Part shown: in pieces, positions 31,991 through 61,555 of the stretch
Layout: the number at the start of each line of letters is the position of its first letter
Position numbering within the stretch: position 1 is the stretch's first letter
NCBI GenBank assembly: GCA_047967505.1
Contig: CM106538.1
Origin: Dipteris shenzhenensis
Lineage: Eukaryota
Direction: 5' to 3' (one strand)
DNA: 64,000 bases
Notes under the pieces: generated by a model
The model's database searches: none
Told to the model about the DNA's origin: nothing
What the model saw: only the letters and a program-made list of their open reading frames with translations
Position numbers and translations under genes: made by a program

Positions 31991-32089
31991 TTGACCAAAG
32001 AAGATTGCAAATCCCGTGGATTTCTCCAGCAAATGAGAGGACGAGGTAGATGCTTTAGCTCAGCACGATTTTGGCAAAGCCGATGAAGC

Positions 32090-32126
32090 TTAGGGTTTAG
32101 GGTGTAATGTTTTTTAGGGTTTAGGG
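32090..32126 (+). repeat. Short telomeric-motif tract (TTTAGGG)
   Basis: TTAGGG TTTAGGG ... TTTAGGG TTTAGGG, overlapping the viral fragment by GG. Confidence 0.8.
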
Positions 32127-32430
32127 TGATGAGGTGGGAGATTGACCGCTGTGGTATGCTTATATTGATGAGTTGCATCATCTTGGAAGCGGGTAGCATT
32201 CATAGAGGACATCCAGTAGCTCCAGCTTTCTCAGGCAGTAAACTTTGAGAAGAGGCAGCTTTCTAAGATGTCAAATCTTGTATGTCTTCAGGGCTCCACC
32301 GATTGAAAGATGGGAAGAAGAGGGGAAAGAGAGATGCATGACTTTTTTCCCATGGCTATGGCAAGGATGAAGCTTGATCATAGATTTAGAAGGGGCATCT
32401 TCAATCTGGAAAGTAGGCAATTGGGAAGAT
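32125..32430 (-). mobile_element. Endogenous caulimovirid fragment A' (post-MP region)
   Basis: Diverged duplicate of 34037-34350. Confidence 0.85.
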
Positions 32431-35269
32431 GGATTTCATCAAGGAAAGCCATGAGGGCTTTGAGTACATGATCTTGTACTTGAAGCTTGCCTTTGTGGAT
32501 ATGTTTTCCTCCCCAATAGTGACCTTTTTGGCAGAAAGAACCAAACCTTTAGCCTTATAGACCTAGACCATTTGTAAAAGATTTGCAAAATTGAAATCTT
32601 CCAGAGTTTTGTGGACTTCATGAGGCATATTATTAACATTGATAATTTTGGTTTGAGCCACAATAAGAGCCATTAAAGAATCACCAATCCCATGAGGTAG
32701 GCTGTATAGATAATGGCGCTTAGCAGAAGTGTCAGAAAAGAGACTGGCCCTATATATCAACTATTGAGCATCAGCATTATAAGCTTTGAGTTGAAAGAGA
32801 TCACAAAGTTGTAGTGCAGAAAGCGGGGCATTAGGTTGGCTGTTGCCATCAACACTTTGAAAGATCTTCTCTTTAGAAGCATCAGATAGAAATTCCCACC
32901 AATTACCAAGGACACAGGTAAATCCTTTTGTGGTTTCAACAAGAGCATCTCTACGATTGCATCTATACATAGTTACCAGAGACATCATATGACCACCATA
33001 AAAGATCTTTAGAAAGTCTTTCATTGCTTGGGGGGAAGGAGCATCAATATTGAGTATATCTCTAGGAAATGACTTGTGCATTAAACGCCTTTGTAAATCA
33101 GACTGTTCATTGAGATCTCTATCCATAAAATGAGTCTAAAATTCACCCCGCATAAATTGAGAACCGAGGACATCATGGAATTGTGTGCGGTGACCATGCC
33201 ACGGTGGTTGCTACTGCTGTTGGGATTGCTATTGATTGGTTGAGGCAGATTCTAGACTTTACACTGGATCTTCTTCCATAGGTTCAATCTTGACTCCTTG
33301 ATTCATATAGAGAGTGGGGAGTCCAATAGTAGAGGCAGATCTTGGAGAATCAGGAGGAGATTGTGGAGGGAGCTGAGGAGGTGGTGGAGGCATAAGAGCA
33401 GGTTCTTGTGGAAGATTAGGTGAAGGGATTGCTTCATAAGGGGCATGTGGGATAGTATTAGCAAAATGATTGGGTTGGTCCACTCTCATAGATGGCCCCA
33501 GTGCCAAGTATTATAGTACATAGGAAAGGTTTCAGTGGCAGGCTGTCGGTTCTCATTAGGAAGAGAGTCAGGAAAGATGGGCCAAAGCATGAGGTTAGGA
33601 GCTTTTTTGGGGCAAAAGGAATTATCAATAGGACTTGCCGATGGCAGAGGTAAGGAGGGAGGCAAAGACTTATGTAGAAGGGTGGTATGCACAGGAGGAA
33701 CAGAATCAGTAGTCAACTATTGGAGTTCTTGTAGAACAGACTAAATATTTCAGTCTAGCTTGCCAACAGCAAGTTGTAAATCATACATTGTGGTATAGCT
33801 AGCATCCAAACATACCTGTGTAGCCAGATTATGTGAATTGCACCAACTGAGTTGTTGTTGTTCAACAAGCATGTCAGCATCTGTCTCCACCAAAGCATAA
33901 GGTGCATGAATTGACTTGAGCTTGCCATCTTCCGTAGTGGATTGAAAGCCTTTAGCTTGAGGCCAATTAACAGGTGGACCATGTTCATTGGATGAAGTCA
34001 TTCAGGAGCAGCAATAATATTGTCATAATTCGTATGGTGATGAGCTGGGAGATTGACTGTTGTGGTATGCTCGTATTGATGAGTTGCATCATCTTGGAAG
34101 CGGGTAGCATTCATAGAGGACATCCAGTCATGAATAGCTTCAGCTTTCTTAGGCGGTAAACTCTGAGAAGAGGCAACTTTCTCAGATGTCAAATCTTGTA
34201 CGTCTTCAAGGGCTCCAGTGATGATTGAAACATGGGAAGAAGAGGGGAAAGAGATATGCATGACTTTTTTCCCATGGATAAGGTGAGGATGGAGCTTAAT
34301 CATAGATTTAGAAGGGGCATCTTCAATCTGGAAAGTAGGCAATTGGGAAGAGGCTTCCTGAAGAATAAACTGATAATCCATTTCCCATTTGGTTGGCATG
34401 GGAAGAGCATCATATTTGAAGTGGGTCACATCAACATTGGTGTTATCATACAAAACACATTCATCTTGGGTATTAACATGACGAGGAAGAGGATTAATAG
34501 TGATATAAGATAATTAATGCATCGGACATGGATGGCACAATACTCTGAGTGAGGCTTCATGGACAAGCCTTTAACTTGTACATAGAGATGTAGTGTCGTG
34601 GAGAGATGTGGATCAGCTAAAGACATTTTAAAATTGGGATAAACTATGGTATGAACAGGCTCACAGTTTAGACTACCATGGATAAGACCAATCCATGCAT
34701 CTTTTAGGTGAAGGTGGTGAGTATCAACAAGGCTAGCCATACAAGTAGCATTATCACCCATCCAGAACAATGGCTCTATGGCCAGAACAAAGCAATCGTA
34801 GTGTATATACTGTTAACCAGAATTTTCGAAAGATTCAATTTCTTGGGAAGTAAACAATGGAAGATACACACCGGTAGAACCTTGATCTGCTATATTTACA
34901 ACCACTTCAAAAATCTTGATATGCTTGAGAGCACAAAAATGAAAAGAACGTGTAGATATCCTCCGGATCTATGATAGGCATGTTCCAGGCAGCTTTTGGA
35001 TCAATAAGTTTAGAAGAAGAAGACGGAGAATCGGTGGAGGAAAAACGAGAAGAAAAGGAACGGATTAGACCAGCCATTAGCCAATACTTGATACTTTCCT
35101 CATGCATTTAGCTCAACCTCAACGCCTCTCTCCGGGCTTTAACGGGGAGCAATTCAACGCCTTTAGGAAAGGATAAAGAACAAACAAGGCTCTGATACCA
35201 AAAGAAGAGCAGAATACAGAATGCAGTGCAGCGTTAGATAGTAGAGGAATGGGAGCCAACAATGATACC
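32431..35269 (-). mobile_element. Endogenous caulimovirid copy A: leader, PBS, movement protein, coiled coil, Pro-rich linker, coat protein N-half
   Basis: PBS at 35200-35189; ATG at 35077 (MAGLIRSFSSRF); 30K-MP core ..ASLVDTHHLHLKDAWIGLIHGSLN..TIVYPNF; CP-like RDILNIDAP..ETTKGFTCVLGNWWEFLS; multiple stops. Confidence 0.88.
35189..35200 (-). promoter_or_regulatory. Viral tRNA-Met primer-binding site (TGGTATCAGAGC)
   Basis: Perfect match with no adjacent LTR; variants at 35872-35884 (+, TGGTGTCAGAGCC) and 57370-57359 (-, TGGTATCAAAGC). Confidence 0.9.
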
Positions 35270-35454
35270 TTTAGGGTCTAGGGTTTAGGGTTTAGGGGTT
35301 TAGGATTTAGGGTTTATGCTTGCAAACCGATTTTAGGGTTTAGGTTTAGGGTTTACTATTAGGGTTAGGGTTTTGGGTTTCGAGTTTAGGGTTTAGGGCT
35401 AAGGGTTTAGGGTTTAGGGTTTAAGGTTTCGAGTTTAGGGTTTAGGGTTTAGGG
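35270..35454 (+). repeat. Interstitial telomeric repeat (TTTAGGG)n, degenerate
   Basis: About 185 bp of TTTAGGG and variants (TCTAGGG, TTTAGGA, TTTCGAG) between head-to-head virus copies. Confidence 0.97.
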
Positions 35455-35745
35455 GGCTACCTGGAATATGCTGATCATAGATCTTGAAGATATGTATAAG
35501 TTCTCTGCTTTCCACTTCCGTGCTCTCAAGCATATCAAGATTTTGGCAGTAGTTGTGACTATTGCTAATGATGGTTCCATTGGTGGTTCCATTGGTGTGT
35601 ACCTTCCTCTATTTACTCTGCAAGAGATTGATTCCTTCAGGAACATTGGTTATCAGTATATCCACTATGGGTGTTTTGTCTTAACCAATCAAACTATTGT
35701 TTCGAATGGGTGTAAATGCTACCTGTATGGCTAGTCTTGTTGATA
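35455..35745 (+). mobile_element. Endogenous caulimovirid fragment B0 (MP 5' part)
   Basis: EDMYKFSAFHF..GYQYIHYGCFVL; diverged duplicate of about 36078-36365. Confidence 0.88.
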
Positions 35746-38700
35746 CATCATCTCCCCATTTTGTGTTCTCCCTTCCTCTCAGTATCCTTGTTAGCTCCCA
35801 TTCCTCAGCTATCTAACCCTCTGCTGCCCTTTTGCTGCTCTTTTGTTCTTTCCTGCATCCTGCTCCTCTTTTGGTGTCAGAGCCTTATTCATTCTTTACC
35901 CTTTCCAAAAGTCATTGAAGTGCTCCCTGTTGAACCCCAGAGGGAGGCGTGTGAGGTTGAGCTAAGTGCATGAGGAAAGTATTAAAGTGTCCAATGGTTG
36001 CTGTAATCCGATCCTTCTCTTCCCGTTTCTCTTCTACCTACTCTGCTTCCTCCTCTTTTGAACTTACTGACCCAAAGGCTACTTGGAATATGCCGATCAT
36101 AAATCCTGAAGATATTTATAAGTTCTATGCTTTACACTTCTGTGCTTTCAAGCATATCAAGTTTTCGGAAGTAGTTGTGAATACTGCTGTGATGAAGGTT
36201 CCACTGGTGTGTATCTTCCTTTATTTATCTGCAAGAGATTGATTCCTTCAAGAACTCTGGTTATCAGTATATCCACTATGGGTGTTTTGTCTTAGCCATT
36301 GAACCATTGTTTCGAATGGGTGTAAATGCTACCTGTATGGCTAGTCTTGTTAATACTCGTCATCTTCGCCTCAAAGATGCCAGGATTGGTCTCATCCATG
36401 GTAATCTTAATCGTGAGCCTCTCCATACTATAGTCTATCCTAATTTCAATATTTCCTTAGTAGATGAACATCTCTCGATTGCTCTTCATCTCTATGTATA
36501 GGTAAAAGGCTTGTCCATGAAGCCTTGCTCTAAATATTGTGCCATCCATGTCCGAAGTGTAAATTACCTTGTGTCCACTATCAATCCCCTTCCCTGTCAT
36601 GTGAATACTAAAGATGAGTGTATCTAGTATGGTAATACTTATGCCGATGTGACTCAGTTTAAGTTTCATGCCCTTCCCATGCCACTTGAATGGGAAATGG
36701 ACTATTAGATTGTTCTCCAAGAGGCCTCTTCCTAGCTGCCTACTTTCTAGATCGAAGATGCTCCTTCTAAATCTGTTATCAAGCTCCATCCTTGTCATAA
36801 CCATGGAAAAAGAGTTATGCGTCTTTCCTTCCCATGTTCCTCTCATGTTTCAATAGCTGGAGCTCTTGATGATGTACCAAATTCAGCATCTGAGACAACT
36901 GCCTCTGCTCAAAGTTTGCCACCTAGAAAGGCTGATGCTATTCATGATTGGATGTCCTCTACTAATGCTACGTGCCTGCACATTGATGCTACCCATCAAT
37001 ACAAGTGCGCTACACTGGTAGTTAATCTTTCGGCTCATCATCATATGAACTATGACAATATCACAACTTCTGAGCATCTGCATCTGATGAACATGGTTCA
37101 CCTGATTAATTGGCCTCGCTCCAAAGGTTTCCAGTCCACCTCAGAGGATGGCAAGCTCAAGTCGGTACATGCACCCTATGCATTGATAGAGACAAATGCT
37201 GTTGACATGCCAGTAGAGCAACAGCAACTCAATTGGTGCAATTCACATAATTTGGCTACCCAGGAATGTTTAGATGCCTGCTATACTGCACTATACGATT
37301 TGCAACTCACTGTTAATAAGTTAGATCAAAATATCTAGTCTGTTCTGCAAGAACTCCAATAGTGAATACTGATCCTATTCCCCCCGTGCATACTACTCTT
37401 ATACACAAGTATTTTTTCGAACCTTTATTTTTATCAATGCATACAAACTTTCGACACCAATATAAAAGTTTCACTTCTTAATGAAACTAATAGGAAAAAA
37501 TCATCCATGCCCACAACCGTATCCAACGGCTCTTTCTCATGGCTCCATGAGATGTGGTTGTGGGAAAGGAAGAGGGTTTAGCCACGTGATCTCGAAACTT
37601 TAGAAGAGCTTTCTGAATACTCTTTAGAATCTCCCACTTATTGCAATCTACCTTCCATCTAGTATTCACGTCCTTCTATTTTCAAACCAACCCATTTTGT
37701 ACATACACCCAATCCGCCATCCAGTTATCTTCCTCCACCCTTCTGCCATGCTCCCATCTCCACCATTTTAGCACTTGCTCCTCCTCTCCAATACTCATCC
37801 TATTCCAAAGCTTGAGATATGTCCTTCTCAACGTCCTTCCTGCTACGATCAATTCAAAAGTCTCGGCATCAGCATTGAAGGACTCTAAATCCATCTTACT
37901 ATAATCAAGGAGAATTGTAGAAAGCTCCAGTCATCAATAGATTCTCTTGATCGAAAAGTGGTAGAGCACCTCACACAATGTAAGCTCTAGTCCCTCTCCA
38001 CAGAAGCACGCCCATTTACTTATTCTATCCCTTTTACTAGTGCTTTCTCCCTCCATGACTTCTTTACCCAACCTGCTTCTCTAGTTTGCATTCTATGGAA
38101 ATGGTCCTCACCATCAAAGGGATTCTAATATGTCTTCCGCCCCATGTGTCAAAGTGTGGATCGTACTAGCCTAGTGCACACAAGATCAGCGGAAGAACGA
38201 AGGAGGCTCAAACCACACTAAGTAAGACATGAGAGGGAGATAGCAAATCTATATCTCTTGCAATAGGTGTGTTCAACAATACATGATAGGCCTCTTATAT
38301 AGAGAGTGCCCTTTGAATAGTCAACACTTGTGTGATCCTCTCATCCACATCCCTCCTTGTGGATATCCTCAATCCACATCTCCACATCATGTAGTCCACA
38401 TCCTAGGGTGGCTACTTTAATTCTTTCCTATACCATACCTTTGCACTTTAATCTATGTGCTCATGGCACCATATCTCAACACCTCCCCTTGGTGCCATGA
38501 TCCTTTGGCTACTGCAAGGTGGTCAGATGTGAGTTATATTCCATCACCTCCCCTTAGTGCTTGCATTGCTACTTAAGGTGGTAAAGTGTGGTTTTTACAT
38601 GTCAATACCTCCCCTGGGTGCTTTCATAGCTACTCTCAGGTGGTCAAATTTGATTTATAAAATATAGGCAAGGTTGGCAAGATATTTGTTTCTCAATACA

Positions 38701-41622
38701 TTCCATTGATGTCACCTTTTGGCTCATGGCTTGATGACGATGGCGTTTGCTTTTTTGCTTGACATAGCTAGTTGCATGATGCTTTGTTCTTCCATGTGCC
38801 TTAATGCTTTCTGTGTAGATGCCATGCTCTATGCTATGGTCATCTCATACACTTGTGCTTTTGGCATGCTTATGACAATGATGTGTGCATTCATGCGTCG
38901 CTTTTCCATTCGTTGCAAAGGTCTTACCAATTGATTTCTTTCAATATCGGCAGTGTCTAATTTCATACAATGATTTTGACTTGACAGGTGCATAGAGCTC
39001 AAAAAGACGATCACTTTTCCCTTTTGGAGCATGTACAAATTCTTCTTGGATTGCAAGTTACGGCTTGTTGTTTTTTTTTGTGAAGAGAGGGGCTTTTGAT
39101 GATGTGGCAGAGGAGTCACATGCTGCCTACATGCTGTGCTTGGCAAGGGGTTATTGTGCTGAGGTAGCCTTGTGCCATGTGGTAGTCTTTTAACCCAAGA
39201 CTAAGAAATTTAACTATGGTCCAAACAACTGAACCTAACCCCACTAACTTAACCACCCCTAACCATGGATAAGTTTTATCTTTGCCACGTGTCCTAAGGT
39301 GTAACCTTAGGAGAGAAAAAGAAGAGAAAACTCTACTTCTCTGTAGTGACATCGACGGCATGGGAATCTATAGCGATGGCAAATCAGCGTTAAAGAAGTC
39401 GAGTCGTCTTTGTTGAGGATGCTGCAGAGTTGATTGGTCGAGGCAGTTGTGGGTAGTGCTGGTCTTTGGAGACCGTAGGCCGTAGAGGCATCGTCGTTGA
39501 AGATGTTGGAGGAGAAGTTGTGGGACGTGCAGGAGCCATCGTTGCTATTGGAAGCTGCGTTGACATTGGCGCTAGAGCTGTGTGCTCTCATTCTCGGCAT
39601 TCCTAGCGGAGGGCGGGTTGAGAAGCTAGAACCATCATTGATTTTCCTCTTTACTGCCATTGCAATGGCATGTTGGAAACTTGTGTGTCGGTTGATGGGC
39701 ACTGCTGGTGTGCTGCTCTTGCAGGTCTGCTAGCTTTCACATAGTACTTATCATTCGCTGGAGGGTGTTTGAAGCACCGAGTCTTCCTTTGACTTGGCTC
39801 TTTGACTGAGTCGTGGTGAAGGGAGCGTCTCACTGGAAATGGCCCATGTGCTCGGGATCCTTCTTAGCTTTGAAGCACTCGTACAAGGTGACAGCGACAT
39901 CACCGAATTCTCCCAACTATTCCTTGTTCTTAGCCGACTTCAGCTCTTTCTTGGCTTTCTCCTCATCATCATAGGTACTCTAGCTATAATTACTGCTTGC
40001 ATAACCTCCATCAGCGCCGTAAGTGGACTGAGTCGAGGTATAATTAGCCTTATTGGAATATTGATCATTCTTGGTAGTTGCAAACAGCCAGGAGCTTGCA
40101 TTGGGCTGCTGGTATCCCGTGTCCCTTCCTTCTTTTCCACCACCCTTCCTCTCCTTTTGTGGGTCTTTGAGGTGATGCTTTATGCTTTGGAGACCTAAGC
40201 ACAATGGATGGCGGTGACTATGGAGAAACTTCGAGTCTCATTGGGAGCCTTCGCTTTGGAGCTGGCCCATTTGGCTGAGTGTTGGCAGTCAAGGCTTCTG
40301 TGCCTTCTTACAAAATGAAACTCTCTCTTTCGCTCCTTTACGACGAAGAAGAAACAAATCTCTCTCTTTCACACTCTCAAACTCTCTAGGAAGAAGAGTG
40401 GGTGAAAACAGAAATCTCTAATGAATGGAAATGCACGACGGAGATTTCTCTTGGACTCTCAATCTAAACTATTCTAGGCCTAGCTAACCTGCTCTAATAC
40501 CATGTCAAAGTGTGGATCATACTAGCCTAGTGCACACAAGATCAGTGGAAGAACTAAGGAGGCTCAAACCACACTAAGTAAGACATGAGAGGGAGATAGC
40601 AAATCTATATCTCTTGCAATAGGTGTGTTCAACAATACATGATAGGCCTCTTATATAGAGAGTGCCCTTTGAATAGTCAACACTTGTGTGATCCTCTCAT
40701 CCACATCCCTCCTTGTGGATATCCTCAATCCACATCTCGACATCATGTAGTCCACATCCTAGGGTGGCTACTTTAATTCTTTCCTATACCATACCTTTGC
40801 ACTTTAATCTATGTGCTCATGGCACCATATCTCAACACGGTGAACATCTTAAGAAGGTACTCAAGCCACTGTTGGATGATTTACAAATTGTTCACCAATG
40901 TTCATCTCCTTTCTCCCTTGACTATATTAGTCCCCCTCCTGAATATGTTGATACTCTTGCACCTTCTCCTACTCCTTCTAATCCTTTTAGCCCTCTAACT
41001 GATGATGCACAAAGTCCCCTCATAGGTTCTGAACTTGATGACTACATCCAAGCCTTATCAAAGAAGATCAACAGAATAGTCTGAGAACTTACCAACATAC
41101 TCTACTCATGCTATCCTCCCTTCAAGAGATGCAGTAGAAATTTATCCAAGACTATACAACAGTGAATCCCCTTTGGCCTTCAAAGAGATATTTCAACATC
41201 AAGTATCACTTCCCCTGAAAGAGAATTCAAAGCCTTTCAAGGAAAGCCCTTATGGGTTCACTCAGGAAGACCATATCCTTTGCAATCAAGAGATAAAGGA
41301 ACTACTAGATATGGGTTTGATTTCTCACACTCACTTTGAATGGGCTGCAACTACCTTCTATGTCAATAAGCATTCTGAACAAAAACGTGGTAAGAAGAGG
41401 TTGGTGATCAACTATAAACCTCCCAATAAAAATCTGGTATCTTTTTCTTACCCTATCCCCAACAAGGAGTATTTGATGAAAAAGATTATAGGATCCACGA
41501 TCTTCTCCAAGTTTGACCTTAAAGTAGGTTTTTGGCAAGTTGGCCTAATCCTAGAAGACCACCATAAAATTGGTTTTGTTGTTCCTCAAGGTTTCTACCA
41601 ATGGAATGTTCTCCCCTTTGGT
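35746..41622 (+). mobile_element. Endogenous caulimovirid copy B: leader, PBS, MP, (CP deleted), partial AP, RT N-half; interrupted by an LTR element
   Basis: ATG at 35994; YIHYGCFVLAIEPLFRMG..LVNTRH; RT FYVNKHSEQKRGKKRLVINYK..FSKFDLKVGFWQV..YQWNVLPFG (41173-41622). Confidence 0.9.
38147..40837 (-). mobile_element. Young non-autonomous LTR retrotransposon (335-bp LTRs, about 2-kb internal region without pol)
   Basis: LTRs 38147-38481 and 40503-40837 (TG..CA, 4 mismatches by eye); PBS TGGTATTAGAGC at 40502-40491; PPT AAGGGGAGG next to 38482; flanks CCATG/CGGTG versus empty site CCGTG in copy C. Confidence 0.92.
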
Positions 41623-41627
41623 ATGAC

Positions 41628-42260
41628 ATCTTTTTTTTTGCCGAAAAAACAGTGCTGATTATATTACTTCGAAAAAACAAGATACATGGGGTCAGTTTTG
41701 CAGCTGACGGGGCTATGTTCACAAATCGGATGCAGCCCTAAGTGGAAACAAAAAGCTCTCTCTCACAGAGGGATCAGGCGGGTGTGAATAAACAGCCAGA
41801 GAGGTGGTGAATAGCGCCACTGAAGGCCCTGAGAAGTATGCACGAAGAAGAGGCCCTGCATATCCCAATCTCGGAGGAAACGTCTCCGCTTCTCCCGGCC
41901 AGCCCGAGAATCCCCCTGTATCTAGTCCCACTGGCCTCTGAGTGTGTGGATAATCTCGCTCCAGATGTCGGCCATGACCTGGGCAGTCGAAAGAGAGGTA
42001 CCACCGAGGATCTGCACGAAGCGCGAGGTCCAAATGTGCCATGCGACGATGCTACTAATAATCTCCCAGACTGGCTGCCTCTCCTGAGATCCTGTGTTCG
42101 CCTCTGCCAAGTGCTACGGGATGCCCACAAGCGGCCCCCAAGTCCCCTGTGTGATAAGGAACATGGGGTCCTGCGGGCCTGCCTCAAACAACTAATGATA
42201 GCCAAGTGTGGTGCTGCACTAGCAGAACGCGCTTCACGGGCTTTGCCAACAACATCTTGA
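41628..42260 (-). mobile_element. LINE 3' end with poly(A) tail, truncating viral copy B
   Basis: QPVWEIISSIVAWHIWTSR (41922-42110); T10 run at 41630-41639. Confidence 0.7.
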
Positions 42261-42834
42261 GCTACAGCATCTACCTCGACCAATCATTTGCTGGAGGAAT
42301 CCACGAGACCTTCGCTCTTTTTTTGTCAAATCACGTCTTAAGATGCCTAGGTCTAGTTAGGCTGTGCAGGTCCCACCTTGTAAGACACTACCTGGAGCAT
42401 ATGCCTTTATGGCATATGAGACCTCTTAGGCTCGGGTCGTCATTTTGGGACTTTCCACATTCTTTTTGGACCATTTTTTAGCATTTCAGGGTTAGTTTTG
42501 GGCTAACATAACTGGTCCACAGAAATTAAATTTTTTATTTTGTGGGCTATTGACACGTGGCGATGCCCCAAGAGTAATCCCATAAGCAAAGAGGACAAAA
42601 AGTGGCCTTATAGTGGGGAGCTTCTCTCATTTGTATTCTCACATTTTTGGTGTTCCACTGATGAGCTTGAGAATATCAAGCAAAACTAGTTTGGAACAAA
42701 GCACCGGTTTGTAATACAAAGAGGATTTTTTATCTCTTTTTGTCTCTCTTTCGTCTTTATGTCTTTGTGTCTTTGTATCTTTGTGTGAGATACTTGTGCA
42801 GCTTTGTTGCTCATGCATTGCTCTTGTGTATGAG

Positions 42835-48800: not shown

Positions 48801-48879
48801 TCTTTTTTCATTCATTTATATATGTGTTTGAGTATTGTACATAACCAGGGTAAAGGCACAGTGACCTTTAACCCCCACA
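42835..48879 (-). mobile_element. Full-length decayed Copia (Tnt1/Tork-like) with very short LTRs and 5-bp TSD
   Basis: LTRs 42835-42986 and 48708-48879; TSD ATGAG at 42830-42834 and 48880-48884; PBS-like at 48705-48694; gag KFDGTNF, WILDFGASFHVT, RYKARLVTKG, LYVDDML, KHIEVRYHFIRE. Confidence 0.95.
44209..44381. mobile_element. hAT-type MITE (173 bp) inserted in Copia RT
   Basis: 13-bp TIRs CCTAGGGAGTTCA / TGAACGCCCTAGG (1 mismatch); 8-bp TSD GTTGCACC at 44201-44208 and 44382-44389; removal restores IYMVQPKGF. Confidence 0.88.
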
Positions 48880-49216
48880 ATGAGTACTTGTGCAACTTGT
48901 TGCTCATGTACTGTTTCGTGCTTGCTTGAATGTTTAGTACTTGAACATCAATTTGTTCATGTATAGTGTGTGCTCTTAGCCATCTTTTTGTCCATGAGAT
49001 TTTGGTTGCTTAGTTTTGTGTTTAGTACTTGAGTATTCTACCTTACTCATGTATTCTTAGCACTCTAAGCACATTTGCACACTTCACAAGCACATTCTTC
49101 ACACAATTTTTTAGACACAGTTTTAAGCATGTAACCGGCCCTCGAAAATTCCATTTTTTGCTGCCGTAGCTAGCCAATTACTCACACTTCACTGCTACAC
49201 ACCTTTTCTTATTTTT

Positions 49217-49234
49217 CTAAAACCCTAAACCCTA
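49217..49234 (-). repeat. Short telomeric-motif tract at the start of viral copy C
   Basis: CTAAAACCCTAAACCCTA; the final CCTA overlaps viral sequence homologous to about 33600. Confidence 0.65.
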
Positions 49235-49876
49235 GTCTTATGCTTTGGCCTATTTTCCCTTAGTCTGTTCAACCTTCTACTGAAAATTCCCTCATCAACG
49301 ATAATACTTGGCAGTGGGGCCACCACTGGGAATTGGCTGATCCAACCCATTTTGCCAATACTACTCTACGCGACCCCTTTGAACAGTTTCTGCTCCTCTG
49401 CCATGGCGTGCTGATCCTATGCCCCCCATCAACGATAATACTTGGCACTGGGGCCACTGACGAGAATTGACTAATCCAACCCATTTTGCCAATACTACTC
49501 TATGCGACCCCTTTGAAGCAATTCCTGCTCCTCTGCCATAGCCTATTGATCCTATGCCTCTGCCACTTCCTCAGCTCCCTTTGCAATCACCTCCTAATTC
49601 TCCCAGATCTGAATCTTCGTCCTCCACTGACCTCCCTACTCTGTATAATGCTAAGGTCGAACCCATGGTTGAAGATCTGACAGCCCCGCCACAACGACAG
49701 CAGCAGTAGCCACCATGGCATGGTCATTGTATAGCTTGTCATGATGCCCTTGGTTCTCAGTTTATGCATGCTGAATTCCAAACCCATTTTATGGATGGTG
49801 ATCTTTACGAGTAACCTGATTTGCAGCGACATTTGCAGCACAAATCTTTTCTGGGTTACATACTCAATATTGATGC

Positions 49877-52800
49877 TATTAAATTACACAGTGTAGCGGA
49901 ATAGAAATTGAACAAAGAATAGAGAGTACACAGCAAACTGGAGAGGAATAAATATTTCCTTCAATACTGATGTAGTACAGATGATGGCTTCGTCCACCTG
50001 TGCACTCCCACAATGGAGCTTAGATGGCGATCTAGACAAATACTAGGTGAAGAGGTACTAGCTAGAAGATCTAATCTGATATGAACTAATCTGATTTGTA
50101 TAGTTGCGATTAAGGATGTAAAGCATAGTATTGACAGCCTTAGTCCAAAAGTGGTTTGGCAGTCCAGCACCTTTTAACATACACCTCCCCATCTCCACCG
50201 TGGTCCACATTCGACGTTCAACAACTGAATTTTGCTGAGGCATATGTGGTGTCATCATTTGTCGCTTGATCCCTTTGCTCTTGCAAAAATCTCCAAACTC
50301 TGTAGAAACAAACTCACCACCACCATCCGATCTGATTTTCTTTACTTTTCTCCTTGTTTCATTCTCAACAAGTTGTAGCCATGCTTTAAATTACCAAAAG
50401 CTTGAGCCTTTTTGCAAAGAAAGTACACCCATATCTTCCTACTATAGTCATTAACAATCAATAGAAAATAGGAAGATCCCCCCAAGGCCTGTGTAGGCAT
50501 CTTACTGCACAAGTTAACATGCACCAACTCTAGAGGAGTGTTTGCTCTATTCTTGCTTTCTTGTGGGAATGCCTTTCTCTGTTGCTTGCCCATCATGCAA
50601 GCTTCACATGGTTCTTTGATTTCTGTGACTGCAGGTCCGCACAAGTTAACATGCACCAACTCTAGAGGAGTGTTTGCTCTATTCTTGCTTTCTTGTGGGA
50701 ATGCCTTTCTCTGTTGCTTGCCCATCATGAGAGCTTCACATGGTTCTTTGATTTCTGTGACTGCAGGTAAGTGAGCAACCATACCTTACTTCTGCATCTC
50801 CTTCAGCACTGCAAATCTGATGTGGCTGAATCTTTCATGCCAAATTCTGCTTGTGCCCACTCCAGCGGTGGCTATAAGAGCACTTAGCTCATACAGGTTG
50901 TTCCTCCTTACTCCTATGCCAACAAGATTGCCTGCACTATCCAAAATTTTTGCTCCTATCTTGTTGAACCTCACCTCATGGTCAAGGTCAGTTATGGAAG
51001 CAAGTGATAGAAAATTTCTCTTGATTTGTGGAACATACAGCACATTAGATAGTTTCTCCATTCACAGAAACAAATGAAACCATATCTATACCCTCAACAA
51101 GCCATTTTGTGTTATTACCAACCGTCATGGTGATGGGTTCATGTAGAGGCTGCATGGAACAATATAGACCCTTCTTGTAGGTCATGTGATGGGAGCCACC
51201 ACTATCCAACACCCATGAATCAGTGGTTGAAATTTCTTGAACTAAGGAACACTCTTCCTCAATGGCTAGAAATAGATCCAACTCTGCTTCTGCTGTGTTA
51301 GCTGTCTCTTTTCCCTTATCTATCTTCTTCAGGATACCATTCTTTTCATTTGCTTTCTTAACCCAGCAATCTGCAATCATATGGTTCTTCTTTTTGCAGT
51401 AGAAGCATCCTCCTTGAAACTTCTTCTTGCCGCCCTTCTTCTTTTTGTCACCACTAGTAGAGGACTCACCTTTGGTGGAGGAACCACCTTTGCCTTTCAT
51501 AGTGGCAGAGAAAGTAGCATCATTGCCACCTCCATCTCAAGCTTTAAGCCTCAATTCCTCCTCCTTAAGTAAAGCATAGAACTCCTCAAATGACAATGGT
51601 TGTTGGGGTCTCACCTGAGTGTTAAGCGCTGTTACCAGTCCATCAAATCTTGGTGGACATATCCGGAGACACCACCGAGCTAGCTCTTCGCTAGTCTTTT
51701 GTATCCCAGCACCAGCCATCTGGTCATGTAGACTTTTGATTCGGGTTATGAACACCTCTACTGTCTCTCTATTAAACTTCTCTACTGCGAGCTGATTCTT
51801 TAGGTTCTAGATCCTTGTTTGATTCCACGTCTCATACTAACTCTTTAATATGTTCTAGGCCACAGTTGCCTTAGATGTATGCTGAATCAAGGTCAAAACA
51901 CTATTAGTAGTACTTGTAACCAGGGCACACAGAGCATCTGTGTTCCTGCATTTCCAGAAGGTCAACATTAGGAGGTATCATACTCCCCAGATTTGCTGGG
52001 TCAGGGGTTCCTTGTGGTTCTAGGTCATAGTCCCCAGTACTGGTCTCCAGAAGCTCATATGAATCTAGAATAGCAGTAATTTTAAACTTCCACAGAGTGT
52101 AGTTCGTACCATCTAGCTTGCCTTCAGTGAAGGTTGGTGGGTGAATCCTCAATGCCTAAATTATTGGTTCAGCAGTAGCTGCTGAACTCGAGCCACTTTC
52201 TATGGAGCCACTTCCTGTTGCCATCACTCCATATGCTATTGAAGCCCTCGCCTCTCTTCTATTCTTCGATCCTTAGAGCCGCCTGGGCTCTGATACCATG
52301 TTAAATTACATGGCACAGTAGAACAAAAACTGAACAAAGAATAGAGAGTACACAGTAAACTAGAGAGGAACAAACTTTCCCTTCAACACTGATGTAGTAC
52401 AGATGATGGCTCCATCCACCCATGCGCTCCCACAGTGGAGCTTAGATGGCGATCTAGATAGATACTAGGTGAAGAGCTACTAGCTGGAAGATTTGATCTG
52501 ATCTGAACTGATTTGATACAATGGACTAGGGAGGTCGCCTCTTTATAGCTATGAGGGCAGTAGTCGGATCAACGTAGTCGGTGGAGTCAACTAGTCGACC
52601 TAGTCAGTGGAGCTGACCAGTCAGCCTAGTCAGTGGAACCGACTAGTCGTCCATGGAATATTCAAAGAATATTCCCTATATCGTTGCCTCGGGGGCTCGC
52701 CCATGGAATATTCAAAGAATATTCCCTATATCGTCGCCTCGGGGGCTCGCCCCCAAACTCCCACCAAAAGGGCTAGCGGCCCCCCTGGGACCCCCCAGTT

Positions 52801-53024
52801 GGGGGCCAGCTGGCCCCCAGGCTCTAGCAAGAATAAGGGGTTCCCACACAATCACCCTTCTACCATCAACAGTCTCATTGATAGACCTCATCTGACATGC
52901 AAGTTAGGATCCATCCAGTGTCCCAGGCTCACACATGGCTTCTCCTCATATGGGGGCCTTACAACTTGAGCACCTTGGACCACTAGTGGTTACCAGGAGG
53001 GTAGGGCATTGAGCATATCTAACA
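49877..53024 (-). mobile_element. Internally deleted Copia (5' LTR, PBS, gag, protease, partial integrase, partial 3' LTR) with TSD
   Basis: 5' LTR 52299-53024; PBS TGGTATCAGAGC at 52298-52287; KLDGTNYTLWK, CFYCKKKNHMIADC, WVLDSGGSHHMT; LTR 3' part at 49877-50100; TSD GATGC at 49872-49876 and 53025-53029; RT/RNase H absent. Confidence 0.93.
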
Positions 53025-54257
53025 GATGCTACTTCTCCCCAAGCAATGAAAGATCTCTTGAAGATCTTCTATGGGCATATGATGTCCTTAGTCATCGTGT
53101 ACAGATGGAATCCACGTGATGTTGTAGTCGAGGCTACCAAAGGCTTTACTGGTGTTCTCAGTAATTGGTGGGAGTTCCTCTCTAATGAATCTAGAGTAGA
53201 TCTTTTCGAGTCTTGACGGTTATCATCAACCCAATGCGCCTAATGCCTTCAAAAGAAGCTATCTTCTACTCAAATGCTGGAAGAGGTAGAGGCAGAGGTA
53301 GAGCAGGCCGATTTGGAGGCCATGGCAGAAATTAGAATATGTAGCAAATTCAAGAAAACTAGTCCTATGGATGAGGGCGTGGTAACCTTAGAGGTAGGGG
53401 GAGCCAAAGAGGTCATGGTGGATGGCAGAGAGGCCAAAATGCAAACAACAATGTTGAATGCTACTACTATGGTAAAGATTGCTCCGAAAAGCTGCGCAAC
53501 TCCCAACACAACCAGCTCAAAGGATTTCTCTCTTCTGTTGCGGATCCAGACTAATGGGAAGTTGTATCCCAAATTGAGTCTAGAGAATCAATGCTTCAAT
53601 GTTCAAAATCTGATACTCTACAATGTTTTGCTTGTCAGCTAGATGATTCCAATGACTATTCCCGCATGGTAAGGTCCGATGAGGATGATCCCCAAATTTA
53701 CAGCTTGATGAATCACCCTCATCATCGAGATCCCTTCCACATTGATATTGAGATATATTTGACCAGCTCCAGTGATACTCCTATTGAGCAGCCTCTCCCA
53801 TGACCCTGTCCAAAGGCTCTTTCTCACGGCTCCATGAGACGCGGCCATGGCAAAGGAAGAGGGTTTAGCCGTGATCTCTAAACTTTAGAAGAGCTCTCTT
53901 AATACTCTTTAGAATCTCCCACTTACCTCAATCCACCTTCCATCTAGTATTCAGGCCCTTCTGTTTTCAAACCAACCCATTCTATACATACACCAAATCC
54001 ACCATCCAGTTATCTTCCTCCACCCTTCTGGTGTGCTCCTATCTCCACCATCTTAGCACCTGCTCCTCCTCTCTAGCCAATAGTCCCTAATAATCATCCT
54101 ATTCCAAAGCTTGAGATATCTCCTTTTCAATGTCCTTCCTACTCTACGATCAATTCAAAAGTCTCAGCATCAACATCGAAGGACTGAAAATCCATCTTAC
54201 TATAATCAAGGAGAATTGTACAAAGCTCTAGTCATCAATAGACTTTCTTGATCGAAA

Positions 54258-56538
54258 GTGGTAGAGCACCTCACACAATGTAAAGAAGCAGGCCCATCTA
54301 CTCATTCTATCCCTTCTACTAGTGCTTTCTACCTCCATGACTTCTTTACCCAACCTGCTTCTCTAGTTCGCAATCCTATGAAAACTTGGTTAATCAATGT
54401 ACAGCCACATTTTCCGGATGTTTCTCCTTATTTACTAATTGCTCTTATATATACTGGATCTGGATTCAATATTTGTAAATATAGAGCACTTCCACAGTCA
54501 TGTTGGAATGAATTACCATCACGTGACCAAATGCATGGATCTTTTATGGGCGGTGGAGTAATAGCCTGCAAGCACATTGCTCTTGGCATTCCTATTTCTC
54601 TTGGAGGCCAATCTACCACCATCAACTTCTACCAACTAAATTCTCAAGGAGTTGATATGGTTATAGGTAATGATTTCCTTAATCATCATCTTCCCTTTGG
54701 GTTCTCTGCTATGGAAATGGTCCTCACCATCAAAGGGATTCTAGTATGCCTTCCAGCCCGTGAACAGCTCAAGAAGGTACTCAAGCCTCTGTCAGATGAT
54801 TTATAAATTGTTCACCAATGTTCATCTCCTTTCTCCCTTGACTATATTAGTTCCCCTCTTGAATATGTTGATACTCCTACACCTTCTCCTGCTCCTTCTG
54901 ATCCTTTCAGCCCTCTTATTGATGATGCACAAAGGCCCCTCATAGGTTTTGAACTTGATGACTACATCCAAAGGCTTATCGAAGAAAATCAAAAGAAGAG
55001 TCTGAGAACTTCCCAACATACTCTACTCATGCTATCCTCCTTATCTCCTCTCTCCCTCCCTTTCTTCTATAATGTGTGGCAGCAACACACACACACTGAG
55101 AGATGCATCAGAAATTTATCCAAGACTGCAACAACAGTGAATCCCCTTTGGCCTTCAAAGAGATATTTCAACATTAGGTATGACTTCCCCTAAAAGAGAA
55201 TTCAAAGCCTTTCAAGGAAAGCCCTTATGGGTTCACTTAGGAAGATTGTATCCTTTGCAATCAAGAGATAAAGGAATTGCTAGATATGGGTTTGATTTCT
55301 CACTCTTGCTCTGAATGGGTTGCAGCTGCCTTCTATGTCAATAAGCATTCTGAACAAAAACATGGTAAGAAGAGGTTGGTAATCAACTATAAACCTCTCA
55401 ATAAATGTCTGGTATCTGTATCTTACCCTATCCCCAACAAGGAGTATTTGATGAAAAAGATTACAAGATCCACGATCTTCTCCAAGTTTGACCTTAAAGC
55501 AAGTTTCTAGCAAGTTGGCCTGATCCCAGAAGACCGCCATAAAACTGGTTTTGTTGTTCCTCAAGGTTTCTACCAATCGAATGTTCTCCCCTTTGGTCAA
55601 AATACTGCTCCAGTCAAGTTTCAAAGATTTATGGATTCTATTTTTGGATCCCACCATGAATTCTGCTTAGTTTATATTGATGACATCTTGGTATATATTA
55701 AGGATGTTGCTTCACATCTACAGCATCTAACCATTGTTTACAATTTGATCAAAGCAAAAGGCTTTTCCCTTTTTACCAAGAAGATCATTATTGGCCAAGA
55801 AAGCATTGAATTCCTTGGCATCCATATCCACAAAGGTAAACTCCAAATGCAAGATCATGTGCTAAAAGCTCTTATGGCTTTTCTTGATGAGATCCGAGAT
55901 CGTACTCAGCTCCAATGTTTCCTTGGTTGCCTAAACCACCTATCTTCTTTCTATGAGCAATTAGCATGAGATAGATATGCTCTTCAACTTTGTCTCCGAA
56001 AGAATGGTCAACCTTGGAGCAATCTACAAACCCAAGCTATACAACACATCAAGGAACGTGTCCAGCACCTACCAACTCTTAGCATTCCTCCAAACATGGT
56101 CTTCTAATAATTGAGACAGATGCTTCTGACAATTTTTGGGGTGTTGTTCTCCTTGAAAGGACCTCTGCCCAAGAAAGAATATGTGCCTTCCAGTCCAGCA
56201 CCTTCCAAGGAGCAGAACAAAACTATCTTTCCATTCAAAAGGAAATACTGGCGGTCAAAAGAGCAATCCAAAAATTGGAACTCTTCATTGTAAAGAAAAC
56301 TTTTATTATTCGTACTGATAATCAGAATTTCAAAACATTATGCACCCACAAGATAGATAAGCAAATCGACCGAGGTCATTTGGCCCGCTGGCAAGAATTC
56401 TTCACCATGTACGACTTCACGATCGAATGGAAATGCACCTCCAATGTCCTTTGTGATATGTTATCATGTGAAGGTGTGACCTACTGGCAAGAAAGAAATG
56501 GTGGACTCCTCCTACCCACTAGTAATGGCCCTGGATAA
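54258..56538 (+). pseudogene. Caulimovirid pol: aspartic protease, reverse transcriptase, RNase H
   Basis: ALIYTGS (DTG decayed)..MVIGNDFL; KKRLVINYKPLN; LVYIDDILVY; IIETDAS..KEILAVKRAIQK..IRTDNQN..LARWQ; stop at 56538; no integrase follows. Confidence 0.93.
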
Positions 56539-56559
56539 GAATAATGTCGTGTCATGGTA

Positions 56560-56800
56560 ACTAGACACTACTTGATGTCCCAGGTAAGACCTTCACCTCG
56601 TGACATGTACATAAGCTTCCTACGATGATTAGACACTGCTTGATGTCCTAGATAAGACCTTCACCTTTAAGTCATGTCACCTTTTGGACAGTTCATGTAC
56701 AAAAGATTCCCACACTAAGGAAGTGGAAGACAACTAGCCATCTACCAAGAAGTTGGATACAGCTAGCCACTAACTCTCCCTTCTATATAAGAGCAGTCCT
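56560..56800 (+). promoter_or_regulatory. Putative viral pregenomic-RNA promoter
   Basis: Two ~36-bp direct repeats (56563-56598, 56631-56666) and CTATATAAG at 56783-56791, about 400 bp upstream of the PBS position; conserved in copy D (TATA at 57807-57801). Confidence 0.65.
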
Positions 56801-57190
56801 TAGTCTTGCAATATGCTTCCGAGCTTCAAGCTCTCTTGCAACCTTGCTTTTCCTTAAGTTTATGTCTCCAGTTCTCTTCGTTCTTTAGCTTTTGCTTCTT
56901 GACTTACCTTTGCTTCGCCCCTTTGTCTCCTTCCCCCATGCCTATTAGTTATTACTTTTTCACCATCACCTATGAGATTTTCTTTGCTATAGATGCTTCC
57001 TCTTCTCTTCTGTGCACTTCCCATCCTACTGCTTTATCCCATTTACATTTGCATGATCCATGCATCATCTCCCCATTTCATGTTCTCCCTTGCTCTCGGT
57101 ATCCTTGTTGGCTCCTGTTCCTCAACTATCTAACCCTCTGCTGCCCTTTTGCTCCTCTTTGGTTCTTTCCTGCATCCTGCTCCTCTTTTG

Positions 57191-57256
57191 AACCCTAAAC
57201 CCTAAACTCTAAACCTTGAACCTTAACCCTTAAACCCTAACCCTAATTCCTAAACC
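57191..57256 (-). repeat. Interstitial telomeric repeat (CCCTAAA on plus), degenerate
   Basis: AACCCTAAACCCTAAACTCTAAACCTTGAACC...CCTAAACC between tail-to-tail virus copies C and D. Confidence 0.95.
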
Positions 57257-58920
57257 CATTGGATACTTTAATAATTTCCTCACGCAGTTAGCTCAACCTC
57301 ACACACCTCTCTCTGGGCTTCAATGGGAGCACTTCAACAATATTAAAGAATGAACAAGGCTTTGATACCAAAAGAGGAGCAGGATGCAGGAAAGAACAAA
57401 AGAGGAGCAAAAGGGCAGCAGAGGGTTAGATAGCTAAGGAACGAGAGCCAACAAGGATACTGAAAGGAAGGGAGAACACAAAATGGGGAGATGATGCATG
57501 GATCATGCAAATGTAAACGGGATAAGCGGTAGAAGGGGAAGTGCACAAAAGGGAAGAGGAAGCATCTGTAGCAAAGAAAAGATCGTAGGTGATGGTGAAG
57601 AATTAATAACTAACAGGCATGGGAGAAGGAGACAGAAGGGCGAAGCGAAGGTAAGTCATGAAGCGAAAGCTAAAGAATGAAGAGAACTGGAGACATAAAC
57701 TTAAGGAAAGGCAAGGTTGCAAGGAAGCTAGAAGCTCGAAAGTATATTGCAAGACTAAAGACTCATACAAGCTCTGCCTTCTACTGAGCCAAGGGTGCTC
57801 TTATATAGAAGGGAGAGTTAGTGGCCAGCTATATCCCACTTTTCAGTGGATGGCTAGCTGTCTTCCACTTCCTTAGTGCGGGAATCTTTTTTACATGAAG
57901 TGACCCAAAGGTGACATGACTTAAAGGTGAAGGTCTTACCTGGGACATCATGCAGTGTCTAATCACCATAGGAATCTTATGTACATGTTGTCACAAGGTG
58001 AAGGTCTTACTTGGGACATCAAGCAGTGTCTAGTCACCGTGACAAGACATTATTCTTATCCAGGGCCATTATCGGTGGGTAGGATGAGTCCACCATTTCT
58101 TTCTTGCCAATAGGTCACACCTTCATGTGATAACATATCTAGAAGGACATTGGAGGTGCCTTTCTTCCATTCAACTGTGAAGTTGTACATGGTGAAGAAT
58201 TATTGCCAATGGGCCAGACAACCTCGGCCGATTTGCTTATCTATCTTGTGGGTGCAAAATGTTTTGAAATTATGATTATCAATGCAAATAATAGAAGTTT
58301 TATTTACAATGAAGAGTTCCAATTTTTGGATTGCTCTTTTGACCGCCAGTATTTCCTTTTAAATGGAGTGATAGTTTTGTTTTGCTCCTTGGAAGGTGCC
58401 AGACCCAAAAGGCACATATTCTTTCTTGGGCAGAGGTCCTTTCAAGGAGGACAACACCCCAAAAATTGTTAGAGGCATCTGTCTCAATTATTAGAAGACC
58501 ATGTTCGGAGGGAATGCTAAGAGTTGGTAGGTGCTGGACATGTTCCTTGATGTTTTGTACAGCTTGGGTTTGTAGATCGCGTTCCAAGGTTTACCATTCT
58601 TTCGGAGACAAAGTTGAAGAGCATATCTATCTCGTGCTAGTTGCTCATAGAAAGAAGACAAGTGGTTTAGGCAACCAAGGAAACATTAGAGCTGAGTACG
58701 ATCCCGGATCTTATCAGGCAAAAACATAAGAGCTTTTAGCACATGATCTTATATTTGGAGTTTACATCTGTGGATATGGACACTAAGGAATTCAATGCTT
58801 TCTTGGCCAATAATGATCTTCTTGGCGGAAAGGGCTAAGCCTTTTGCATTGATCAAATTGTAAACAATGGTTAGATGTTGTAGATGTGAAGCAACATCCT
58901 TACTATATACCAAGATGTCA
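57257..58920 (-). mobile_element. Endogenous caulimovirid copy D: RT C-half, RNase H, intergenic region, PBS, up to the ORF1 ATG
   Basis: DILVYSKDVASHLQHL, LLIIETDASNNFWGVVLLE; reverse complement of about 55680-57190, continuing through the PBS to ATG at 57259. Confidence 0.92.
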
Positions 58921-58979
58921 TACCAATCTTCGAAATGTCCATCCCTAGCTCCTGCGAGCCCTCCTCCCCTCTCCGTAGC

Positions 58980-59450
58980 CTCTACCTCCCTACCTTCCTC
59001 CGCCTCACCTACGCTCTTGCCTCGTGCCCCTCGCCCCTCACCCTCGCCCCTCACCCTCGCCTTGCGCCCCTCGCCCTCGCCTCGTGCCCCTTGCCCCTCG
59101 CCTTGCCTTCGCCATCATGCCCTCGCCTCGCTCCTCGCCCCTCGCCCCTCGCCACCACGCCTCACCTCCGCCCTCCACCCTCGCCTCCGTCGCCGCCCTT
59201 CGCCCTCGCCTTCGACCTCCGCCCTCTGCCCTCGCCTTTGACCTCCGCCCCTCCGCCCTCTGCCTTCCGCCCTCCACCCTCGCCCCGACCTCCACCCTCG
59301 CCTTCGACCTCTGCCCTCCGCCCTTGCCTCGCCATGCCCTCACCTCGCCCCCTCGCCCTATACCTGCCGCCTTGTCTCACCCTGCCATTGCCTCCTCTTC
59401 CTCTGCCCCGCCTCGCTTTGCCTCGCCTTATCCTCCTCCGTCACACCCAA
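58980..59450 (+). repeat. Degenerate (CCCTCG)n-type low-complexity array in the LINE 5' UTR
   Basis: Repeated CCCTCGCC / CCTCCGCC motifs. Confidence 0.85.
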
Positions 59451-61423: not shown

Positions 61424-61555
61424 GATGACCCCGCCTCCCCCTCCAAACCCTCACAAAAGCGTCAGCGCCTTCATTCCGAAATACTAGCCTCTTCATCGAC
61501 CTCAGCCACGAGCAGCCACGAGCAGACAGTTGTTCGCAGCCTACCAGTCCTCATC

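Follow-up and report, generated by a model that had tools for sequence, protein, structure and literature searches.

A decayed cluster of caulimovirid fragments from two related viruses, with telomere-type repeats at fragment ends, in Dipteris shenzhenensis DNA

The 64,000-nucleotide stretch of Dipteris shenzhenensis DNA analysed here (GenBank assembly GCA_047967505.1, contig CM106538.1; hereafter the window) carries between 32.1 and 58.9 kb a rearranged cluster of at least six caulimovirid fragments interrupted by three long terminal repeat (LTR) elements, as seen by self-comparison and six-frame translation. The locus is very probably a fossil of endogenous caulimovirid DNA, neither a live virus nor a retrotransposon. 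Its pieces encode a movement protein (MP), a putative coat protein (CP), a putative aspartic protease (AP), a reverse transcriptase (RT) and RNase H in that order, fall into two viral lineages, are all broken and group in clade B of the family. On the best reading, double-stranded DNA of a clade B virus with this gene order entered a host chromosome in rearranged pieces, some head-to-head, some tail-to-tail and some misjoined, end-joining repair of DNA breaks being the most likely route. Two related viruses that had diverged under protein-coding selection supplied the pieces, neutral decay after capture brought copies of one lineage to a difference of ∼8–10 per cent with a methylation-type pattern, and LTR retrotransposons inserted into the locus later.

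The outer bounds of the fragments are 32122 and 58921, compared with 32125 and 58920 in an earlier note made from the sequence of this stretch. The fragments are:

32122–32429, minus strand: fragment A′, lineage 1; duplicates the segment that follows MP.
32431–32548, minus strand: misplaced RT C-terminal piece, with A′ on one side and the CP end of A on the other.
32566–35277, minus strand: fragment A, lineage 1; ∼70 nt of intergenic end, primer binding site (PBS, 35200–35189), ATG (35107), MP, putative coiled coil, Pro-rich linker and CP core.
35455–35746, plus strand: fragment F, lineage 2; MP N-terminal piece that runs without a gap into the intergenic start of B.
35743–41625, plus strand: fragment B, lineage 2; intergenic end, PBS (35872), ATG (35970), MP, putative coil, second putative coil, AP end and RT N-terminus, truncated inside RT.
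49231–57190, plus strand: fragment C, lineage 2; Pro-rich linker, CP, Arg/Gly-rich and Cys/His stretch, second putative coil, AP, RT, RNase H, stop codon and a non-coding tail of 650 nt.
57256–58921, minus strand: fragment D, lineage 2; RT C-terminus, RNase H, stop, 685 nt of non-coding DNA, PBS (57370–57359), spacer, ATG and ∼9 codons.

Fragment A′ is 89 per cent identical to A at 34033–34351 and 77 per cent to B, while F is 86 per cent identical to B at 36077–36356 and 73 per cent to A. The misplaced RT piece translates as ...GKHIHKGKLQVQDHVLKALMAFLDEI, and its first part (32431–32503) is 85 per cent identical to C at 55823–55895. At its downstream end C terminates at the second base of a PBS site (57188–57190). 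An extension of C upstream of 49231, raised by apparent protein similarity, was rejected on a local nucleotide alignment of just 61 per cent over 49 nt. The Pro-rich linker of C holds a tandem duplication of 134 nt in two copies 88 per cent identical (49289–49558), and the truncated RT end of D abuts a GC-rich low-complexity block of period 7 (58940–59360; units such as GCCCCTC and CCTCCGC).

The MP, RT (RVT_1) and RNase H domains were judged against Pfam's own cut-offs and all pass. Matches to MP lie at 34429–34812 on the minus strand in A (36.1 bits) and at 36196–36498 on the plus strand in B (40.1 bits; cut-off 23), those to RVT_1 at 55241–56104 (plus strand, 105.5 bits with stops read as X) and 41080–41655 (plus strand, 40 bits), and those to RNase H at 56083–56535 (RT_RNaseH, plus strand, 82.1 bits) and 58303–58590 (RT_RNaseH_2, minus strand, 42.5 bits). 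The YIDD motif of RT and the DAS motif of RNase H are present in C. The remaining two proteins fall short of their profiles, DUF7746 reaching 19–20 bits for CP in both A and C under a cut-off of 27, and Peptidase_A3 13.9 bits for AP under a cut-off of 21.3. The CP segment nevertheless gives collinear phmmer matches to the CP regions of two related proteins (P0017 and P0141), and the AP segment matches the AP of relatives at 21–33 bits and that of TVCV and SPVCV at 17 and 27 bits; the E-values were computed for a set of just 166 sequences, and the CP and AP matches to relatives (P0017, P0141, the P0121 cluster, TVCV and SPVCV) occur in the correct order. The earlier note had read both an MP and a CP in this DNA, and profile searches carry the first over its threshold but not the second.

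In the only copy of AP, that of C, a Tyr occupies what is presumably the position of the retropepsin catalytic Asp, as placed by the D(T/S)G motif. As a candidate for the CP C-terminus, which had been described as missing, the badly broken copy C, and no other, has at 53195–53800 a sequence rich in Arg and Gly that includes a degenerate Cys/His motif; a canonical CCHC zinc knuckle was not found, the degenerate Cys/His stretch in this single copy being all that was seen. The other elements named in the earlier note are in place, its two quoted peptides included: YDLQLTVNKLDQNI is the end of the open frame 36751–37335, and YDQFKSL...IIKENCRKLQSSIDSLDRKVVEHL sits in copy B at ∼37.85–38.0 kb. Pfam gave no match to the putative coil, Pro-rich and second putative coil segments, and an ESM Atlas query with the open 195-residue segment after MP returned no usable match. 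It had also been held that the viral element has neither integrase nor LTRs, and this is borne out: within the window the integrase domain (rve) occurs only inside Copia elements, with none between RNase H and the PBS, and comparison of the window with itself revealed no LTR pair bounding any viral copy.

Substitutions between the copies distinguish two sources. Ratios of nonsynonymous to synonymous change (dN/dS) were obtained by the Nei-Gojobori method from pairwise alignments in the inferred frames, with the wrong frames as controls. From MP to the coil, A and B differ with a dN/dS of 0.14 (dS 0.96, dN 0.13, 432 codons, synonymous excess p=7e-34), and the ratio between lineages is 0.13 in the MP core and, for A against C, 0.10 in the CP core and 0.38 in the Pro-rich linker. 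The two wrong frames yield 0.79 and 1.29 for the A–B alignment, and 0.63 and 1.48 for A–C. Within lineages the ratio is 0.97 for A and A′ (92.5 per cent identity), 2.1 for B and F (90 per cent), 0.88 for B and C (91.9 per cent) and 0.60 for C and D (91.5 per cent, with 90.5 per cent in the non-coding part). Two related viruses were thus the sources, A and A′ forming lineage 1 and B, C, D and F lineage 2. The low ratios between lineages imply that the sources diverged while both were under protein-coding selection, while the differences inside each lineage are mostly neutral decay. The segment intermediate between MP and CP belongs to no known family, and given its ratio of 0.14 it is therefore real coding sequence.

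No copy is open, each having stops, frameshifts, deletions or truncation. Fragment A has at least four frame changes and at least three stops, and C at least five frame changes, at least eight stops and a nested Copia element; D differs from C by four stops, three frame-breaking indels and one further indel of 3 nt. In its MP–coil part B has five stops private to it and one frame change, and it has lost ∼1.6 kb (Pro-rich linker and CP) and ∼0.3 kb (AP core). Every stop of B in the MP–coil region (36499–36750 and 37336–37362) is TAG, seven in all, with four opposite glutamine codons of A, and A and B differ by 206 transitions and 85 transversions. In its sequence pattern this decay looks like methylation-driven deamination at CHG sites. 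The divergence K between copies of one lineage is ∼0.08–0.10, and plant neutral rates are 0.5–1.3e-8 per site per year; on these figures the copies of one lineage would last have been identical roughly 3–10 million years ago.

Three LTR elements interrupt the cluster:

38147–40838: small LTR element in B; LTRs 98.8 per cent identical over 336 nt, PBS at 40502–40491 on the minus strand.
∼42835–48880: Copia element between B and C; LTRs 84 per cent identical.
49878–53024: deleted Copia element in C; LTR remnants 85 per cent identical over 217 nt, GATGCT duplicated on both sides.

Pieces of one LTR family, 80–94 per cent identical, occur beside the outer end of A′ (31746–31985), past the end of B (42231–42330) and, as the long LTR of the nested Copia, in C (52607–53025). 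The same retrotransposon family has struck the locus repeatedly. A Copia ORF of the window has its best database matches at 66–73 per cent identity, and those with a named source, from assorted angiosperms, reach 60 per cent or less, which speaks neither for nor against a fern or lycophyte host.

The order of the viral genome can be read from PBS to PBS. The 12-mer of the tRNA-Met PBS has six sites with at most one mismatch, against 0.47 expected in shuffled sequence, and half of these belong to LTR elements; the viral ones are at 35200–35189 (minus strand, exact), 35872–35883 (plus strand) and 57370–57359 (minus strand), the last two with one mismatch each. The spacer from PBS to ATG is 81 nt long in A and 86 nt long in B, with the ATGs at homologous positions. 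The RNase H frame ends at the same stop codon in C and D, ∼20 residues past the domain, and the 650 nt (C) or 685 nt (D) from that stop to the PBS contain no conserved open reading frame (ORF) and no Pfam match, the frames being CT-rich and not kept open in D, in agreement with the earlier statement that no ORF follows RNase H. Within this region one part resembles a promoter:

56562–56790, plus strand: promoter-like part; direct repeats at 56562–56598 and 56630–56666, then a TATA box, CTATATAAGAGC, at 56784.

Both the repeats and the TATA box are conserved in D, where the latter is at 57807. Because the TATA box is conserved 405–437 nt upstream of the PBS in C and D, the pregenomic leader from TATA box to ATG is probably ∼500 nt long, and the 'short leader' of the earlier note is only the spacer between PBS and ATG. 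A single fragment, D, extends from RNase H across the non-coding DNA and the PBS to the ATG, and the start of B falls within the non-coding region. It follows that the template was either a circle or terminally redundant, and the viral genome is circularly permuted in the captured copies.

Non-overlapping coverage sums to ∼6.3 kb and ∼1,860 codons, or to ∼6.5 kb if deletions private to C are allowed for (33 nt of non-coding DNA and ∼58 CP codons, the latter an apparent loss as read from the translations). These data indicate a compact genome of ∼6.3–6.5 kb in which a tRNA-Met PBS and a spacer of 81–86 nt precede a long frame, followed by 650–685 nt of non-coding DNA with repeats and a TATA box. 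There is probably one such frame, of ∼1,860–1,920 codons, closing ∼20 residues after RNase H. The order and the recoverable length of ∼6.5 kb proposed before stand as a plan, but the tiling that yields them joins pieces of two viral lineages and is a chimera. To call the genome reconstructable goes too far when all copies are broken, the tiling is chimeric and C alone represents most of the region between CP and AP.

Telomere-type repeats occupy several of the fragment ends. A 14-mer of two CCCTAAA units has 23 matches with at most two mismatches, against 0.41 expected, and all are at four places. In the 64 kb, clear (TTTAGGG)n arrays are found only at the ends of viral fragments:

32089–32126: TTTAGGG on the plus strand, ∼4 units, interrupted; outer end of A′.
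35270–35454: TTTAGGG on the plus strand, 26 units (Tandem Repeats Finder, period 7); fills the whole gap between A and F.
57191–57257: CCCTAAA on the plus strand, ∼9.7 units; fills the gap between C and D.

In the A–F and C–D gaps both breakpoints are placed with single-base precision, and there is no filler besides the array; on its sense strand the viral end of D reads ...CCAATGG, continuing GTTTAGG.... The viral homology of A′ stops at ...CATCACC and passes straight into repeats, only the viral side being resolved here. The fourth place (49223–49236) is ambiguous, with two units, two mismatches and a partial overlap with viral homology. Some herpesviruses carry native telomere repeats. A native viral origin was ruled out for the repeats in the window because other copies have ordinary viral sequence at the homologous positions, and the repeats are therefore filler. 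Among 107 related loci (723 kb), only L041 has at least three units (2589–2616), and that array ends 12 nt before a 5′-truncated fragment of an unrelated endogenous caulimovirid.

Rearranged clusters of endogenous caulimovirids with (TA)n flanks and tandem, inverted or multi-copy structure have been described, and capture as filler during double-strand-break repair has been proposed for them, in the available part of one review (PMC10377300). The cluster in the window is likewise rearranged and multi-copy, but its filler is (TTTAGGG)n and not (TA)n. The word stem 'telomer' occurs zero times in that review, and searches of full-text literature gave co-mentions only, with no paper linking telomere repeats to pararetrovirus junctions. 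It is conceivable that telomerase extended the free ends of linear viral DNA or of a broken chromosome, and that the next fragment was then joined to the extended end; its action at free ends is what we infer from the arrays. The larger proposal, which couples this route with a new group-level lineage of clade B having the most compact plan in the family (∼6.3–6.5 kb), is offered tentatively, as more doubtful than probable. Alternatively, the viral DNA may have been captured into an interstitial telomeric array, or the junction repeats may reflect an assembly error. The end of C at the second base of the PBS coincides with what we take to be the site of the minus-strand discontinuity in caulimovirid DNA, and a linear form broken at that gap could have been captured as C, unless the coincidence is due to chance.

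The RT of the window places the fragments among caulimovirids. As a query it scores 191 bits against a caulimovirus-type 'Enzymatic polyprotein' (PDB 8r0s), compared with 115 bits against the Ty3 RT (4ol8). A protein search kept 222 of 831 candidates at E≤0.001; an integrase domain is absent from all 120 matches listed, many of which have MP, Peptidase_A3 or caulimovirid coat domains. An IQ-TREE analysis of 39 RT–RNase H rows, which we picked from 62 drawn from 124 proteins and 107 loci, puts the window within a 31-row clade B with support of 100/99. A separate 8-row clade holds the solendoviruses (TVCV and SPVCV) and multi-ORF viral contigs whose long ORF begins ∼1 kb from the PBS. A quick tree of 62 rows and a FastTree of 123 rows agree with this placement, and the earlier assignment to caulimovirids in preference to Ty3/Gypsy is upheld.

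Within clade B the window forms its own branch, of uncertain position and long partly through decay of the copy, outside every well-supported subclade. Those subclades are one of Adiantum sequences (100/100), L081 with L017 (100/100), P0001, P0121, P0003 and P0141 (96/95), a petuvirus-like clade of L083, L082, Citrus, Eutrema, Gossypium and others (100/100) and a large angiosperm group (100/97). The petuvirus-like label follows the naming of groups in PMC13308828 ('Petuvirus gp C. sinensis / E. salsugineum') and the single-ORF layout of L083. A member of the genus Petuvirus would be expected to group in RT–RNase H with Petunia vein clearing virus and its endogenous relatives, but the petuvirus-like clade excludes the window. 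The best RT identity is 52–53 per cent, both in the protein collection and among metagenome stretches (the best 80 of 495 confirmed), and at most 46 per cent in IMG/VR contigs (n=27), such that the window is near-identical to no virus retrieved.

How new this branch is depends on groups already named. In the available text of their study, Vassilieff et al. (2026) define 71 groups at 62 per cent RT identity from 47,135 endogenous RT copies in 93 plant genomes, and their screen took in 17 ferns and 9 lycophytes and yielded groups from ferns and Lycopodiaceae (PMC13308828). Under the 62 per cent rule the window would be distinct from everything retrieved, in a comparison set to which neither Fernendovirus references nor any of the 35 new 2026 groups belonged. 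The earlier suggestion of a new lineage thus holds as far as its separate branch and an identity under the threshold can carry it, but not beyond the sequences compared. That the window belongs to Fernendovirus 1 or 2, or to one of the 35 new groups, is a serious prospect, only somewhat short of even. The 2026 screen included ferns and lycophytes, the window shares its part of clade B with fern (Adiantum), gymnosperm and petuvirus-like rows, and unannotated endogenous copies would not show in the protein databases searched. Set against this, nothing retrieved exceeds 52–53 per cent, the Adiantum sequences at 44–48 per cent have a clade of their own, and decay after capture, at ∼4–5 per cent per copy, cannot close the gap to 62 per cent.

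Several observations count against a fossil caulimovirid with a single polyprotein, in whole or in part. The CP and AP profile scores lie under their cut-offs, the tree was built without Metaviridae rows so that exclusion of Ty3/Gypsy rests on the 8r0s scores and the integrase-free matches, and the junctions may be misassembled. The Copia element in C has LTRs more diverged (85 per cent over 217 nt, K ∼0.17) than C is from D (∼91 per cent identity), and therefore a simple order of capture followed by insertion does not fit; a later duplication, gene conversion or other homogenisation, or a recombinant Copia is needed. The single open frame, for its part, rests on the tiling and on relatives, with no copy intact, and one and the same frame change is required in both B and C on passing from AP to RT, a change that is possibly ancestral. 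Two TAG codons also stand at homologous positions in A and B, 8 codons apart and just past the first putative coil, and the 31-nt core that spans them is identical at 30 of 31 positions, compared with an A–B average of 78 per cent. This pair could mark a real ORF boundary.

If it does, an MP–coil ORF would end at the shared stops and a second ORF, from CP to RNase H, would be expressed in another way. Beyond the conserved pair itself, the downstream coding frame of B is shifted by one base, and none of the eight other stops is common to A and B in 451 aligned codon pairs. We consider two or more ORFs unlikely nonetheless. All five stops private to B are TAG and four are opposite glutamines of A, as expected from CHG deamination, and with ∼14 such sites we estimate a chance of ∼0.2 that both TAGs of A would coincide with those of B. 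In A, moreover, the frame passes from the putative coil into the Pro-rich linker unshifted, no ATG opens an alternative frame, and P0141, P0012, L081, L082 and L083 are all single-frame. Conserved stops splitting the ORF had been named beforehand as grounds for abandoning the petuvirus-like polyprotein; two shared stops do exist, but they are judged not significant, and the data are compatible with one uninterrupted frame.

It is highly improbable that the copies represent an endogenous virus that was active until recently, or can still infect, and whose sequence could be taken from them directly. Conservation between copies of the promoter-like repeats, TATA box, PBS and ATG would suit such a virus, as would YIDD and DAS in C, but each copy has several stops and frameshifts, B is without CP and the AP core, the only AP copy has Tyr at the presumed catalytic position, copies of one lineage differ by 8–10 per cent and old LTR elements are nested inside. 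An LTR retrotransposon lineage with an acquired MP-like domain is the least credible reading, since the RT and RNase H families and a tRNA-Met PBS are common to LTR elements and the Copia elements of the window share the 12-mer, yet no integrase lies between RNase H and the PBS, no LTR pair surrounds any copy, the RT is far nearer to caulimovirus polymerase than to Ty3 and the near relatives are all caulimovirid-type.

Elsewhere in the window, LINE-like elements at 61424–63813 and 1260–1855 give a weak endonuclease match and an RVT_1 match of 93.9 bits, the relative at the opposite end of the window being inverted and 68 per cent identical. Several more Copia fragments are present, as is a MULE-type SWIM finger at 24475–24807.

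Plant DNA viruses have their main fossil record in endogenous caulimovirids, and the genome layouts of deep clade B lineages are poorly known. The locus provides a nearly complete layout for a lineage whose RT matches nothing retrieved above 53 per cent, and a full layout would add to what is known of Fernendovirus-type lineages, for which genomes could not be rebuilt according to the part of the source available (PMC5766536). The signatures of selection reveal two diverged viruses captured side by side. Telomere repeats at the junctions offer a countable clue to capture by break repair, which has so far been deduced mainly from (TA)n flanks, and if the association were true genome-wide, telomerase-assisted break repair would be a route of endogenous caulimovirid capture that we have not found described. 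The locus leaves the general view of the family as it was; 71 groups and 47,135 copies are catalogued in the text available to us, and the news is modest unless the telomere association proves general.

The plan of this genome most resembles that of Petuvirus, which is the sole ICTV genus in clade B in the available text of PMC13308828, and the petuvirus-like layout proposed in the earlier note agrees with three Petuvirus-type contigs listed as complete in IMG/VR and with the collinear protein P0141. The contigs L081 (7107 nt), L082 (6996 nt) and L083 (7206 nt) have the PBS at nt 1, as at the genome start here, an ATG at 155, 131 and 51 respectively (the spacer in the window is 81–86 nt) and one ORF of 2129, 1812 and 2179 residues. 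That frame carries MP, AP or a Zn knuckle, RT and RNase H in an order like that of the tiling, without a separate downstream ORF of at least 200 residues, and leaves a non-coding remainder of ∼0.6–0.7 kb in L081 and L083 and ∼1.4 kb in L082, compared with 650–685 nt in the window. All three contigs share the major clade of the window, but RT–RNase H identity to them is only 37–43 per cent and the window lies outside the petuvirus-like clade. The frame ends ∼20 residues after RNase H in the window, L082 and P0012, whereas L083 and L081 have 395–530 more; in L081 and a near-identical metagenome contig, L017 (7028 nt), ∼530 residues follow RNase H inside the polyprotein. The estimated size of 6.3–6.5 kb is below the family range of 7.1–9.8 kb given in the part of PMC13308828 available, and deletions could explain the difference.

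Fernendovirus 1 and 2 are clade B endogenous elements of ferns and clubmosses, and the window is likewise an endogenous clade B element; their complete genomes could not be rebuilt, according to the text available from Diop et al. (2018; PMC5766536). Named fern sequences were retrieved only from Adiantum nelumboides; its three proteins are 44–48 per cent identical in RT and form a separate clade with support of 100/100. The closest relatives found are JGI/IMG and Logan proteins (P0141, P0003, P0121, P0001 and P0002), with RT identities of 51–53 per cent and the shortest tree path throughout. Their MP is only 25–30 per cent identical to that of the window and their 96/95 clade leaves it out, yet P0141 is collinear with it over four regions, with MP at residues 79–217, CP at 627–773, AP at 1191–1292 and RT from 1439.

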